From an uncultured Burkholderiales bacterium (GTDB lineage Bacteria; Pseudomonadota; Gammaproteobacteria; Burkholderiales; Casimicrobiaceae): DNA of 64,000 nucleotides. Positions within the stretch are counted from its first letter, which is position 1. Each line of letters begins with the position of its first letter. The notes beneath the pieces were generated by a model. The model saw nothing but the letters and a program-made list of their open reading frames with translations. It was not told where the DNA came from and made no database searches. A program made the translations under genes and the position numbers. This document shows, piece by piece, positions 5,603 through 54,149 of the stretch. The DNA lies in contig CALDYQ010000018.1 in NCBI GenBank assembly GCA_937944385.1, positions 1,832-65,831 on the forward strand. Direction: 5' to 3'.

Positions 5603-6991
5603 TTAGTTGGCGGGTGGGGTTGGTCGGTCGCTCGCCACGACCGGGACTTCTCCTCGCGCCAGGCGCAGGCGCAGGGCGTCTCCCGGACGGACGCGCGCCG
5701 CATCGCTCACGACGCCGCCTGCGGCATTGAAGACGACGGCGTAGCCCCGCTCGAGCACGCGATCCGGATCGAGCAGAGCCAGCGCGTCCGCGGCGCGCAT
5801 GAGGCGTTGGCGTGGTCGGTCGCAGACCGTGCGGGCTGCGACGGCCATTCGCGCTTCGAGGCGGGCCAGACGCTCGGCAGCCAGGCGGGTGGCTCCGCCA
5901 TGGGCGACGAGCGCATGCCAGCGGGCATCGAGCCGCGCGTGCCGTTCACGCAAGCGCTCGGTCGCGCGCGCAAGCGCCCGGGCGAGCCGCGTGGCGAGGC
6001 CGAATGTGCGCTCGCGCCACGGTGCAAGTAGCGTTTGCGTCGAGGCGATGCGTGCCGCCGCACGATCGAGACGCTGGGCCAGTTGCTCGAGGCGTCGGCT
6101 CTGGGCGCGGGCGAGTCGTTCGCCGAGCATGGAGACGCGGGCCGCGATCTCCGAGGCATCCGGTGTCGCGAGCAGCGCTGCGGCGCTCGGCGTGGGCGCG
6201 CGCAGGTCTGCGGCGAAGTCGCACAGGGTGAAGTCCGTCTCGTGCCCGACCGCGCTGACGATGGGCAGACGCGAAGCGGCCACTGCACGCACGAGGGCCT
6301 CGTCATTGAACGCCCAGAGATCCTCCAGGCTGCCGCCGCCGCGGCCGATGATGAGCAGATCGCACTCCGCCCGCACGTTGGCCACCTCGACGGCGGCACG
6401 CAGTTCCGCCGGCGCGGCGGCGCCCTGCACCGAGGCGGGATAGAGGATCACCCGGGCGAGCGGCCAGCGGCCCCGGAGCACGCGCAGCATGTCGGCCAGT
6501 GCCGCCGCCTCGCGCGAGGTGATGATGCCGATCGAGCGCGGGAAGGCCGGCAGCGGGCGCTTTCGTGCCTCGTCGAACAGGCCTTCGGCGGTGAGCCGGG
6601 CCTTGAGGCGCAGGAAGGCTTCATACAGCTCGCCCGCACCCACGGCGCGCACCTGCTCGACGATGCATTGCAGCTGGCCGCGCGGCTCGTAGATCGCGAC
6701 CCGCACGCGGCATTCCACGGCCAGGCCATCGGCGAGCGCGAAGGGCACGAGTGCCGCGCGGTTGCGAAAAAGCACGCAGGCGATCTGCGCGCGATCGTCC
6801 TTGAGGTCGAAGTAGGCGTGGCCGGAGGCGGCGCGCTTGAAGCCCGAGATCTCGCCGCGCACCCAGAGGAGCGGGATCGCGCGATCGAGCGCCTGCGTGA
6901 TCCTCGAGAGCAGTTGCGACACGCTCCCAGCGGTCGCACCCGCGGGTGCCGCAGAGGCGCTTGTGGGATCCTCATTGCGTGGGTTTGTCAT
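5603..6991 (-). CDS. xseA: Exodeoxyribonuclease VII large subunit
   Basis: [12 protein letters not shown]-fold, [53 protein letters not shown]. Confidence 0.97.
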
Positions 6992-50569: not shown

Positions 50570-50962
50570 TCAGCGCTTCGAGAACTGCTTGCGACGGCGC
50601 GCCTTCCGGAGACCGACCTTCTTGCGCTCCACCTCGCGCGCATCACGCGTCACGAGGCCGGCCTGCTTGAGCGTGGGCTTGAGCGCGGCGTCGAATTCGA
50701 TCAGGGCACGCGTGATGCCATGGCGAACGGCACCGGCCTGACCCGTCTCGCCCCCGCCAAACACGTTGACCATGATGTCGAGGCTGTCGAGGTTGTTGGT
50801 CAGCGCGAGCGGCTGACGCACCACCATGCGACCCGTCTCGCGCGAGAAGTACTCGTCCACCGGCTTGCCGTTGACGACGAACGCGCCTTTGCCCGGCTTG
50901 ATGAACACACGGGCAACCGCGCTCTTGCGCCGACCCGTACCGTAGTTGTAATTGCCAATCAT
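50570..50962 (-). CDS. rpsI: 30S ribosomal protein S9
   Basis: [42 protein letters not shown]. Confidence 0.99.
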
Positions 50963-50983: not shown

Positions 50984-51412
50984 TTAGAGGTCGAGAGCCT
51001 TGGGCTGCTGTGCTGCGTGCGGATGTTCTGCACCGGTGTAGCACTTGAGCTTCTTGAGCATCGCGTAGCCGAGCGGTCCCTTGGGCAGCATGCCCTTGAC
51101 AGCCTGCTTGAGCACGCGATCCGGGTGCTTGGCCTGGAGCTTCTCGAAGTTCGTCTCGTAGATGCCGCCCGGGTAGCCCGAGTGACGGAAATAGGTCTTC
51201 TGATGCGCCTTGTTGCCGGTGACGCGGACCTTCTCCACGTTGGTCACGATGATGAAGTCACCGGTGTCCATGTGGGGCGTGAACGTGGGCTTGTGCTTGC
51301 CGCGCAGGCGCGTGGCGATCTGGCTTGCGAGGCGACCGAGCACTTTGTCGGTGCCATCGACCACGAACCAGTCCTGCTTGATGTCGGACGGTTTGGCGGA
51401 GTAGGTTTTCAT
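50984..51412 (-). CDS. rplM: 50S ribosomal protein L13
   Basis: [41 protein letters not shown]. Confidence 0.99.
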
Positions 51413-51660
51413 GCTGAGCTCGATTGGTGTTTTGCCAGGGCCGGTGCCCGCGGCCGCAGGGTGCGGTTGGACGGGCTGTCGGTCGAGGCTTTGTGAGACA
51501 GTTCGCCGGAAGGCCGGGGGGCGGATTGGGGCCGAGGGCCGCGCGCCGTCCAGACGAAGCTCAAAAGTATAGCGCGGACGCGGTGGGTTCGGATGGCAGG
51601 CAACAACCGAGAGCGCGATCAGACGGCGCAGTCCGCCAAGCACCGCTCAGATGGGCTCTG

Positions 51661-51772
51661 AAAAAAGAAAGGGCGGGTGGAGCATGGCCCACACCCGCCA
51701 GAAGAGAATGTCACACCCAAGGAGGAGGAAGGAGGACATTCATCGCCCGGGAAGGAGGAGACCCGACCGACG
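51661..51772 (-). ncRNA. Putative trans-acting sRNA with CU-rich anti-SD loops (resembles the betaproteobacterial toxic sRNA family)
   Basis: Minus strand: two stem-loops presenting UCUCCUCCUU and UUCCUCCUCCUU, then GGCGGGUG/CACCCGCC terminator and CUUUCUUUUUU tail; own -35/-10 upstream. Family similarity is from memory, not from an Rfam search. Confidence 0.75.
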
Positions 51773-51777
51773 ACGAA

Positions 51778-51806
51778 ATTTGATCATGTTGCGGCGCACA
51801 AGTCAA
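51778..51806 (-). promoter_or_regulatory. Candidate sigma70 promoter of the sRNA
   Basis: Minus strand TTGACT (51806-51801), 17 bp, TCAAAT (51783-51778). Confidence 0.55.
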
Positions 51807-51964
51807 CAGTCAGATGCGTGGGGCGCCGCGTATTCAATAGGGAATCCGCTCTACTCGTAAGCGCAGCAGGCAACGCCGTTCATGCTGCTCAAGAGAAATC
51901 AAAGTGTTTGTTTTTCAGAGACTTACGTAAAACAAGCGTGTGTTTCTGATGGCCGGCAGGATTG

Positions 51965-51982
51965 AAAATGAATATTGATTTT
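51965..51982. promoter_or_regulatory. AT-rich near-palindrome upstream of the OsmC-family gene
   Basis: AAAATGAATATTGATTTT is self-complementary except for one pair and lies in a conspicuously AT-rich 120-bp patch. Confidence 0.4.
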
Positions 51983-52026
51983 TGCGTAGATTCAAATTTT
52001 GCACTTGCACAAAACGGAGATCTCCG

Positions 52027-52443
52027 ATGAGGACGAGTGTTCGGTGGGTAAGCGGTGTGCAGTTCGTCGCTGAGACGGGATCGGGGCATGCAATGGTGGT
52101 CGATGGGGCGCCAGAATACGGAGGGCGGAACACGGGTGCTCGACCGATGGAACTGGTGCTCGCGGGGGCGGCGACGTGCACGGCATTCGACGTGATCCTG
52201 ATGCTGGCAAAGGCGCGCCAGAAGGTCACGGGATTCTCGGTCGAGGCCGAGGCGGCCCGGGCAGAGACCGATCCGAAGGTCTTCACCGCGATCAAACTGA
52301 CCTACCGCGTTGCCGGTCCCACCATCGATCCCAAGGCGGTCGAGCGCGCAGTCAAACTCTCGAAGGAGAAGTACTGCTCGGCCACGGCGATGCTCGGCCG
52401 GACGGCCGAGATCGCAACCGAGATCGTCATCGAGGATGTCTGA
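52027..52443 (+). CDS. OsmC/YhfA-family protein
   Basis: GARPMELVLAGAATCTAFDV and SKEKYCSAT (two conserved Cys); GGAG RBS before ATG 52027. Confidence 0.92.
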   Translation: MRTSVRWVSGVQFVAETGSGHAMVVDGAPEYGGRNTGARPMELVLAGAATCTAFDVILMLAKARQKVTGFSVEAEAARAETDPKVFTAIKLTYRVAGPTIDPKAVERAVKLSKEKYCSATAMLGRTAEIATEIVIEDV

Positions 52444-52946: not shown

Positions 52947-54149
52947 TCACTCCATCTTTCTTGCCAGTGGCGGTTTCATTGACCAGGCCGCCACGAACCA
53001 AAGCGCGGCCAGGGCCGCGCAGACGTAGAACACCGCTTCGTTGCCGTAACGCTTGGCCAGTGTACCGCCGACGATGCCACCGGCGAAGAGCCCGAGGGAC
53101 ATCGTGGTGTTGTACACGCCCAAGGCGAAGCCCTTCAGATGCACCGGGGCGATGCGCGACACGAGCGAGGGTTGCATCGCTTCGAGCAGATTGAAGGCAA
53201 CGAAGAAGGCGAGCAGGAAGGCGATGATGCCCTTGAAGGCGAGGGACGACAGTTGCGGCGCCGCAACGAGCGTGAGCACCAGGAGTCCGATGGCGGCGAG
53301 GAAGACCTCCCGCAGCTTTCCGCGTCGCTCGGCCGCGATCATGGGCGGCACCATGAGCGCAAACGACAACAGGATCACCGGCAGATACGCCATCCAGTGT
53401 GATGCCGCGGCGAGGCCCCCGCGCTCGACCAGCAGCGTCGGGACGACGACGAACAGCGCCGTCTGGCAGAGGTGCAACACGAACACGCCGATGTTGAGGC
53501 GCAGGAGTTGTGGGTTGAACAGCACGTCGCCATGCCGTACGGGCTCCGGCGTCTCCTCCCGGAGCACTGCAGCGGGCACGCCCCAGATGACGACCGCGCA
53601 GCCGACCAGCGCGAGCAGCGCCGTGATCCAGAACAGTCCGGCGAGCCCGACGGCGGCTGCGAGCGGCGGCGCGATCACGAGCGAGACGGCGAAGGACAGC
53701 CCGATCGTGGCGCCGACGATGGCCATCGCCTTGGTGCGCACTTCGTCGCGAGTCGAATCGGCCACGAAGGCCGAGACGGCGGCGCTCACGGCGCCTGCGC
53801 CCTGGAGCGCGCGGCCGACGATGACGCCCGTGATCGTCGCCGCTGTCGCGCCCAATGCGGCGATCGCGCTGCCGGCGGCAAAGACGAGCAGCCCGAGCAC
53901 GATCACCGGCTTCCGGCCGAAGCGGTCGGAAGCCGCACCGAGGGGAATCTGGAACATGGCCTGGGTGAGACCATAGACCGAGATGGCGAGCCCGATCAGG
54001 TAGGCCTCCTGGCCGCCTGCGAGCGCGCGACCGTAGATCGCGAACACCGGCAGGATCAGGAACAGGCCGAACATACGCAGGCCGTAGATGCTCGCGAGCC
54101 AGAGGCTCGCGCGGCGCTCGGCCGGGGTCATCGCGTGGGGAGAACTCAT
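52947..54149 (-). CDS. MFS transporter (YajR-like)
   Basis: LRMFGLFLILPV, GAASDRFGRKPV, 12 TM helices; canonical neighbour of ssb. Confidence 0.92.
   Translation of the reverse strand: MSSPHAMTPAERRASLWLASIYGLRMFGLFLILPVFAIYGRALAGGQEAYLIGLAISVYGLTQAMFQIPLGAASDRFGRKPVIVLGLLVFAAGSAIAALGATAATITGVIVGRALQGAGAVSAAVSAFVADSTRDEVRTKAMAIVGATIGLSFAVSLVIAPPLAAAVGLAGLFWITALLALVGCAVVIWGVPAAVLREETPEPVRHGDVLFNPQLLRLNIGVFVLHLCQTALFVVVPTLLVERGGLAAASHWMAYLPVILLSFALMVPPMIAAERRGKLREVFLAAIGLLVLTLVAAPQLSSLAFKGIIAFLLAFFVAFNLLEAMQPSLVSRIAPVHLKGFALGVYNTTMSLGLFAGGIVGGTLAKRYGNEAVFYVCAALAALWFVAAWSMKPPLARKME

Follow-up and report, generated by a model that had tools for sequence, protein, structure and literature searches.

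A candidate anti-Shine-Dalgarno small RNA gene upstream of rplM in an uncultured Burkholderiales bacterium, with a PhaR-type palindrome in its promoter

In a 64,000-nucleotide (nt) stretch of DNA from an uncultured Burkholderiales bacterium of the Casimicrobiaceae (contig CALDYQ010000018.1, assembly GCA_937944385.1; hereafter the window), the ribosomal protein genes rplM and rpsI are preceded by a short minus-strand element that lies between rplM and a divergent OsmC-like gene. An initial annotation of the letters had proposed that this element is an independent small transcription unit encoding a small RNA (sRNA) with loops complementary to the Shine-Dalgarno (SD) sequence. The element is a structured, terminator-ended unit with its own conserved promoter and is related to the Rfam family RF02278. 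We regard it as very probably a stand-alone gene whose product is a trans-acting sRNA of about 110 nt from the betaproteobacterial toxic-sRNA or double-hairpin family (RF02278; NcS27/BdhR1, S17). Its promoter holds a palindrome of the type bound by PhaR. The features of the locus are collected in Table 1.

Table 1. Features of the sRNA locus and its neighbours in the window (group A and L081 are described in the text)
Feature	Position	Strand	Details
Predicted sRNA, about 110 nt	51661-51774	-	Delimited by ViennaRNA fold, covariance-model match and alignment with L081; start predicted
Hairpin 1 (anti-SD site A)	51742-51771	-	10-nt loop UCUCCUCCUU at 51752-51761
Hairpin 2 (anti-SD site B, conserved family core)	51706-51741	-	11-nt loop UCCUCCUCCUU at 51719-51729
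Rho-independent terminator	51661-51699	-	GC-rich stem GGCGGGUG...CACCCGCC at 51672-51699, then CUUUCUUUUUU at 51661-51671
Extended -10 TG-A-TCAAAT	51778-51786	-	Hexamer TCAAAT at 51783-51778; counterpart in L081 TG-A-TTGAAT
PhaR/AniA-like palindrome TTGTGCGCCGCAACA, 15 bp	51787-51801	-	Promoter spacer between -35 and -10
-35 hexamer TTGACT	51801-51806	-	TTGnnT at the same position in 13 group A loci, TTGACT in L081
rplM (L13)	50984-51412	-	Downstream same-strand neighbour; Pfam Ribosomal_L13, 2e-47
rpsI	50570-50962	-	Follows rplM; Pfam Ribosomal_S9, 3e-49
OsmC-like gene	51982-52443	+	Divergent upstream neighbour; Pfam OsmC, 3e-18

The predicted transcript begins 4-7 nt past the -10 hexamer and ends with the U-tract of the terminator, about 250 nt ahead of rplM. 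Its minimum free energy fold in ViennaRNA consists of exactly three hairpins (-47 kcal/mol, z = -3.7, with 0 of 200 shuffles folding as well), and both hairpins of the initial annotation, together with its GC-rich terminator and U-tract, appear in that fold, the terminator stem being bulged. The inner stem of hairpin 1 pairs CGGG (51765-51762) with CCCG (51751-51748) within an outer stem (51771-51768/51745-51742), so that the two stem arms read GUCGGUCGGG/CCCGGGCGAU. The closing stem of hairpin 2 joins GAAUGUC (51741-51735) to GACAUUC (51712-51706), and a first CCUCC is paired inside this stem. Both hairpin loops display CCUCCUU, the heptamer of the 16S ribosomal RNA 3' tail (the window itself holds no rRNA gene), and the RNA can therefore pair with ribosome-binding sites (RBSs) of the GGAGG type.

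The promoter, TTGACT-N17-TCAAAT, also lies where it had first been placed. Its hexamers are 17 nt apart and a TG is found one base upstream of the -10 hexamer. The same register, TTGnnT-N17-(TGn)nAnnAT, recurs in all 14 loci of the two-loop form (13 group A loci and the window), and L081 has the same layout. The promoter call is supported by this identical register in 14 related loci and by the conserved TG, which marks an extended -10.

Comparable elements were found in 30 of the betaproteobacterial rplM loci that were fetched. Each has CCTCC motifs followed by a GC hairpin and about 5-9 T's (T7-9 in the canonical form), placed 90-306 nt ahead of rplM and in the same orientation. They come in two forms. 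Two loops with CUCCUCCU, like those of the window, mark group A (Casimicrobiaceae and several soil metagenome-assembled genomes). In group B (Thauera, Azonexus, Dechloromonas, Tepidiphilus and others), an invariant UGUCUCCUCCACCCUCCUCCUUUGGUGUGGAUUU comes after a 5' hairpin that varies. The core columns CC.CC...CUCCUCCU..GGUG do not vary in an alignment of the window with group A, NcS27, Thauera, Azonexus and Tepidiphilus. The initial annotation was to be given up if its loops proved unconserved at homologous loci; they are invariant across 32 such loci, and the stems covary. In particular, RNAalifold recovers three hairpins from the window and the 13 group A elements, with double substitutions at 8 of 21 pairs and covariation in the inner stem of hairpin 1. 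A model-guided alignment of 30 sequences has 90.6% of its cells paired, and both partners have changed in 20 of 27 pairs, a result reached by 0 of 500 shuffles. As this alignment was made to fit the model, its figures lean towards structure. Sliding the partners of this alignment lowers the pairing to 26-52%, and its terminator helix is 99% paired, with double changes at 7 of 9 pairs.

A comparison that is independent of this model-fitted alignment comes from L081, a single contig obtained by scanning metagenomes for the window-specific core. L081 derives from a closer relative (identities of 90% for RplM, 95% for RpsI and 83% for ArgC) and has the same gene order as the window. By blastn, only some 145 nt (51663-51807) of the OsmC-rplM intergenic region align between the two, the flanks not being alignable. 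Within this segment all 36 of 36 nt of hairpin 2 are identical, as is the loop of hairpin 1. The stem of hairpin 1, on the other hand, has been wholly rebuilt (UCAAUCGAA/UUCGAUUGA), the terminator carries compensatory changes, and the predicted dot-bracket structure keeps the three-hairpin layout of the window.

Such a pattern bears on whether the locus encodes a very small protein instead of a non-coding RNA. Two open reading frames (ORFs) lie on the RNA strand, one of 10 codons (MNVLLPPPWV) starting at 51743 and one of 30 codons (51647-51739); the shorter is kept in L081, and Bordetella S17L also has a putative ORF of 32 amino acids. Against a coding role, neither ATG is preceded by an SD-like sequence, homologues of groups A and B lack the ATG, conservation follows RNA stems with compensatory changes and does not run codon by codon, and the 30-codon ORF passes through the terminator, which differs in L081. 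The missing SD, the unconserved ATG and the RNA-type conservation make a protein product exceedingly improbable. As for MNVLLPPPWV (51743-51711, minus strand), its retention in L081 follows only from the identity of the RNA sequence.

Kinship to a known family was assessed with covariance models. R1, a model trained on the 13 syntenic group A elements from other betaproteobacteria and not on the window, matches the window element over its full length at 51664-51784(-) (37.2 bits, E~8e-8), with no second copy in the 64 kb. Further R1 matches are 17 of 17 group B syntenic elements (27-35 bits) and L081 (28.5 bits). All nine group B elements tested with Rfam (9/9) pass the gathering score of RF02278, at 55-66 bits, and R1 thus bridges forms that the Rfam model recognizes and forms that it misses, namely the window, L081 and the 11 group A loci tested; two further group A loci of the same form lay outside that Rfam test. 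The nine counterparts that pass, the positional equivalence with NcS27 described below and the invariant loops on covarying stems support the independent small transcription unit first proposed. Extra covariance-model matches in L027, L026, L018 (near 5500) and L057 were set aside, the two that were read (L027 and L057) being plain terminators after erpA and rpsI, and a further match at 53003-53020 of the window is a GC hairpin. A BLAST comparison of the core with the PLSDB plasmids and chromids, aimed at paralogues, gave no match, probably on account of the low-complexity filter.

The members of RF02278 were discovered through their toxicity when cloned in E. coli, and several have since been characterized. 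In Burkholderia cenocepacia, the 'double-hairpin' sRNAs ncS03, ncS05, ncS27 (NcS27/BdhR1) and ncS62 have CU-rich unpaired regions predicted to cover RBSs (PMC4603805, PMC5688073). NcS27 has been confirmed by differential RNA sequencing, 3' rapid amplification of cDNA ends and quantitative PCR (PMC5688073, PMC10987360). Its overexpression slows growth, an antisense to its CU-rich region speeds growth, and it is trimmed to a shorter form (PMC4603805, PMC5688073); it also alters carbon-source use and accumulates upon growth arrest (PMC10987360). In Bordetella pertussis, S17 binds Hfq, is shortened to 67 nt by RNase E and represses BP2158 directly by RBS pairing (PMC11722255). S17 adjoins coq7 and probably represses many transporters in the same way (PMC11722255). 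Overall, the targets of the characterized relatives are mostly transporter and catabolic genes.

The window element shares with NcS27 and RF02278 a betaproteobacterial host, a CU-rich core in a hairpin loop (GUC(U)CCUCC-NN-CCUCCUCCU-NN-GGUG) with a GC-rich intrinsic terminator directly after it, and loops complementary to RBSs. It also occupies the genomic slot of NcS27, on the strand of rplM: ncS27 likewise sits between an OsmC-like gene and the L13 gene, which makes the window element its positional counterpart. The differences concern layout. In canonical RF02278 RNAs the first CU-rich stretch ('site 1') is single-stranded and the second lies in a loop, whereas in the window and group A a longer closing stem takes up the first stretch, this stem being the 7-bp GAAUGUC/GACAUUC helix in the window. 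The 5' hairpin, nondescript and processed off in NcS27 and S17, forms a second anti-SD loop in the window and group A. The terminator stem of the window is longer than the canonical one and bulged, and the promoter box lies inside the spacer in the window but upstream of the -35 in group B. With S17 the element has in common the family core, a sigma-A promoter and an intrinsic terminator, RBS pairing with Hfq being a feature of S17. Yet the authors of the S17 study describe a 27-nt stretch as 100% conserved across Betaproteobacteria, and the window core departs from it at several positions. S17 is also longer (190 nt, with an RNase E product of 67 nt), is controlled by BvgA and has no reported link to PhaR.

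Two alphaproteobacterial comparisons were less close. The initial annotation had likened the anti-SD loops to both the toxic sRNAs and the cuckoo RNAs. The first likeness stands, given the nine syntenic counterparts that pass RF02278 and the shared NcS27 slot, while membership of the cuckoo family was not borne out. In E-value mode the best Rfam match is indeed ar14/cuckoo (RF02344; NfeR1), covering model positions 1-123 in full, but at 21.8 bits (E = 0.074) against a gathering score of 58.8. The cuckoo RNAs resemble the element in having 2-4 tandem hairpins with CCUCCUCC-type loops before a terminator. Their defining motif, however, is CCUCCUCCC in each hairpin (PMC4615179), whereas the window loops end in UU and contain CCUCCUCC only once, followed by U and not C. 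Betaproteobacteria are not mentioned in the paper that defines the cuckoo family, and the host here is a betaproteobacterium. For MmgR (alpha-r8; Rfam suhB RF00519) the match is weaker still (14.4 bits, E = 3.6, gathering score 41), so that the likeness is functional only, with no demonstrable homology. Like the window element, the MmgR sRNA is short, exposes a CU-rich anti-SD motif and has an intrinsic terminator and a PhaR/AniA dyad between -35 and -10. It differs in its alphaproteobacterial host and hairpin layout, in its effect on phasin expression, and in that its binding by PhaR has been shown by electrophoretic mobility shift assay (EMSA).

The genomic surroundings tie the betaproteobacterial relatives together. 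The order OsmC-like gene, sRNA, rplM-rpsI is seen in the window, L081, B. cenocepacia and the Azonexus locus L018. In the last of these coq7 (1461-2084) flanks the cluster, followed by the OsmC-like gene (2086-2541), the sRNA (about 2782-2892) and rplM (3001 onward). This cluster is conserved, and since S17 adjoins coq7 and ncS27 adjoins OsmC and L13, all three RNAs, predicted or characterized, probably derive from a single ancestral locus. Across several betaproteobacterial orders, the OsmC-rplM slot seems to be where the family resided ancestrally, and looking there is an easy means of finding orthologues that escape sequence models. The novelty of the element itself is modest, because the family is already known and characterized: it is a divergent new member of an experimentally characterized toxic-sRNA family, and it reveals that the RF02278 model misses a whole two-loop subfamily.

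Several observations weigh against an independent gene of this family. No Rfam family matches at gathering score anywhere in the 64-kb window, and the RF02278 model finds nothing in region 51400-52100 (701 nt) even at E<=10 (gathering score 50 bits). Membership therefore depends on R1 as an intermediate, on synteny and on the common core. The -10 hexamer TCAAAT lacks the near-universal A at position 2. Among the RNA runs searched for the locus, none held more than 5% of the sampled words (one metatranscriptome reached 5%), the DNA runs being metagenomes. In the stretch from the terminator to rplM, neither the window nor L081 has a recognizable sigma-70 promoter for rplM. Finally, metatranscriptome contigs (runs X30 and X25) on the Dechloromonas-like locus L014 (2795-2986 and 2799-3500) begin 13-17 nt past the predicted sRNA start and none reach the upstream spacer, but one of them crosses the terminator from the sRNA into rplM. 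These are contigs and not reads, which makes the L014 evidence weak, and the spanning contig hints at some read-through or DNA carry-over.

The first of these points would also suit a functionless, CT-rich intergenic stretch that stands beside a terminator by chance, as would the result of a consensus promoter and terminator scanner, which called neither feature at the sRNA locus. The scanner miss is explained by the C in place of A at position 2 of the -10 and by the bulge in the terminator stem. The leave-one-out covariance match (E~1e-7), the covarying conservation of the element at 32 loci across several betaproteobacterial orders and the fact that no other intergenic segment can be aligned between the window and L081 in effect already refute a chance origin, to which we assign next to no probability.

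The last two points raise a different alternative, that the element acts in cis on rplM-rpsI as a leader or attenuator (e.g. an autoregulation site for L13 or S9), with the terminator as a regulated attenuator and the CU-rich loops mimicking rRNA. The same-strand position directly upstream of rplM in all 32 loci would fit such a leader, as would the lack of a clear rplM promoter downstream of the element in the window and L081 and the contig that covers both sRNA and rplM. Its distance to rplM, however, ranges from 90 to about 650 nt, with spacers that cannot be aligned, and most relatives have a consensus TTGACA-N17-TAnAAT between terminator and rplM. In B. cenocepacia a gene on the opposite strand parts ncS27 from rplM: ncS27 lies between BCAL3348a and the OsmC-like BCAL3349, and the L13 gene BCAL3348 has its own mapped 5' untranslated region of 113 nt (PMC5688073, supplementary tables). 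In addition, family members act in trans and occupy loci that have no relation to rplM, and the element is served by a conserved promoter of its own that includes a regulator box. The variable spacing, the rplM promoters of relatives, the intervening gene and 5' untranslated region in Burkholderia and the trans action of relatives render the leader improbable. Some read-through into rplM may nonetheless occur, given the one spanning contig and the lack of a recognizable rplM promoter in the window and L081.

The part of the locus most worth following up is the palindrome in the promoter spacer, whose link to this sRNA family, drawn here from sequence comparison, is apparently new. It was scored with a position weight matrix (PWM) built solely from 14 Sinorhizobium meliloti PhaR sites, for which 969 background windows gave a 99th percentile of 9.9 bits. 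The window palindrome reaches 17.5 bits, and no other site in the 64 kb attains 11 bits. With a single mismatch to the Ralstonia eutropha PhaR palindrome YTKNTGCRNYGCANMAR (PMC12849132), it is also the sole site in the window with at most one mismatch to that motif. Among the sRNA promoter zones, 30 of 31 score 10.3-22.5 bits and L081 scores 16.8 bits, so that the box is kept in 31 of 32 homologous promoters; the promoter of L001 has none. In the two-loop loci and L081 the spacer carries TTGTGCnnnGCAAyA (L081 5494-5508). In group B the palindrome reads TGTGCnnnGCACAAA and precedes a TTGCnn-N17-cAtAAT promoter by 7-10 nt. Other examples of the box are L018 2727-2741 and L021 2753-2767. A second copy is present in many loci, such that two boxes flank the -35, as in phasin promoters.

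These sites agree with what is known of PhaR operators. EMSA-validated PhaR sites of S. meliloti include phaP1 TTGTGCACTGCACAA and mmgR TTGTGCACCGCAGCA (PMC12542648), and footprints of the PhbF protein of Herbaspirillum seropedicae gave the consensus TG[N]TGC[N]3GCAA (PMC3206438). The mmgR promoter, whose dyad lies between -35 and -10, is repressed by AniA, and the dyad has a further link to NtrC control (PMC8401924). The window has the arrangement typical of the PhaR regulon, that is, a TGC-N3-GCA core with T/A-rich arms that overlaps or flanks the -35 and -10. The conservation of the palindrome in these promoters suggests control that responds to polyhydroxybutyrate (PHB), similar to that of MmgR. 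We incline slightly towards reading the palindrome as a PhaR box, in which case the sRNA would be repressed in cells without PHB granules and released once PhaR is titrated onto granules.

Two results count against a PhaR box. No phaR, phaC or phasin genes were identified in the 64 kb, which is only partly annotated, and in the window alone a loose palindrome pattern is not enriched (11 matches against 18 expected). The palindrome gains significance only through the independent PWM and its conservation. The same trans-acting anti-SD sRNA may instead be governed by another regulator at this site (e.g. NtrC or a different dimeric factor), or the palindrome may be a mere conserved promoter spacer. 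The dual connection of the mmgR dyad to AniA and NtrC would accord with this, as would the control of B. pertussis S17 by BvgA, the box-less L001 promoter and the absence of visible phaR or PHB genes from the window. On the other hand, the site fits three independently derived PhaR motifs (S. meliloti EMSA sites, H. seropedicae PhbF footprint, R. eutropha palindrome), the critical TGC-N3-GCA triplets are conserved and the centre of the palindrome varies, and paired boxes surround the -35 in many loci, as they do in phasin promoters. Another regulator, or a mere conserved spacer, is possible, though rather unlikely. In the literature that was searched no link between PhaR and NcS27, toxic sRNAs or S17 was found, and a prior mention may exist; Sass 2017 reports an unnamed motif common to the regions upstream of ncS03, ncS05 and ncS27.

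If the palindrome is a PhaR box, the element could work as follows. PhaR bound in the promoter spacer would block RNA polymerase until PHB granules sequester it. Transcription would then start at the sigma-70-type extended -10 promoter and stop at the intrinsic terminator ahead of rplM, yielding the ~110-nt RNA, which is perhaps trimmed to a short form as in relatives. The CCUCC loops would pair with GGAGG-type RBSs and block translation initiation of a subset of mRNAs, probably with the help of Hfq. By analogy with the characterized relatives, expression, Hfq dependence and RBS occlusion are to be expected, and RNase E may do the trimming. The status of carbon storage would in this way be coupled to the repression of nutrient uptake, like MmgR in Sinorhizobium. 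Burkholderia homologues rise 4-8-fold in glucose medium, and titration of PhaR would explain this rise, which fits the scheme without being a test of it. A broader proposal, for which we see the case as evenly balanced, is that the rplM-linked toxic-sRNA/NcS27/S17 family is an ancestral member of the PhaR regulon, and the betaproteobacterial counterpart of the alphaproteobacterial PhaR-MmgR circuit.

The physiological trigger of the family has so far been described only as growth arrest or nutrient deprivation, and the conserved PhaR-type box supplies a concrete regulator candidate. A 2021 review noted that the riboregulation of PHB metabolism in Cupriavidus necator was undeciphered. If the PhaR scheme is true, PHB physiology in Betaproteobacteria would gain the riboregulator that it has lacked until now: an anti-SD RNA under carbon-storage control that shuts off the translation of uptake and catabolic genes. 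PHB storage would then be tied to translational control in bioplastic and wastewater organisms (Cupriavidus, Dechloromonas, Azonexus, Thauera).

A second strong PhaR-type box occurs about 150 nt further upstream in Rhodocyclales-type loci (L018 2569-2583, L014 2567-2581, L006 2557-2571, L012 2593-2607, L027 2566-2580). In L018, the only one of these loci in which the gene was mapped, this box lies about 30 nt before the divergent OsmC-like gene. Because it directly precedes that gene, the OsmC-like gene may share the same putative PhaR regulon. Beside the OsmC-like gene of the window there is no site of at least 10 bits.

Turning to the neighbouring genes, rplM, rpsI and argC follow the sRNA on its strand, and ssb and a major facilitator superfamily (MFS) transporter lie beyond the OsmC-like gene (Pfam annotation). 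The real start of the OsmC-like gene is probably the ATG at 52027, and a 219-codon ORF (50984-51643) is a mere in-frame upstream extension of rplM. The RplM protein of the window has at most 81% identity to the best species-level genomes, its top matches being uncultured Betaproteobacteria, and the locus sequence is present in marine and hot-spring metagenomes.

The initial annotation had added that, if many local mRNAs are leaderless, the RNA would selectively repress the SD-led subset. Weak or no SD was seen within 20 nt of the minus-strand starts of rplM (51412), rpsI (50962), argC (50353), the MFS transporter gene (54149) and a DUF6776 gene (49242). Among six neighbouring genes with clear starts, a clear GGAG precedes only ssb (52943), a count that is uninformative on leaderless transcripts. 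To judge from these starts, strong SDs may be a minority here.

Two further details concern the region between the sRNA and rplM. About 25 nt directly before the rplM start (GGCAnAACAnCnATCGAGCTCAnCATG) are kept between the window (51410-51440) and L081 (6260-6290), the rest of the 5' region not being so. In L081 the sRNA-rplM gap includes some 650 nt of purine-rich sequence (5640-6280) full of GAAGCG/GAACG-like repeats that are absent from the window, which may be an insertion or a repeat element.

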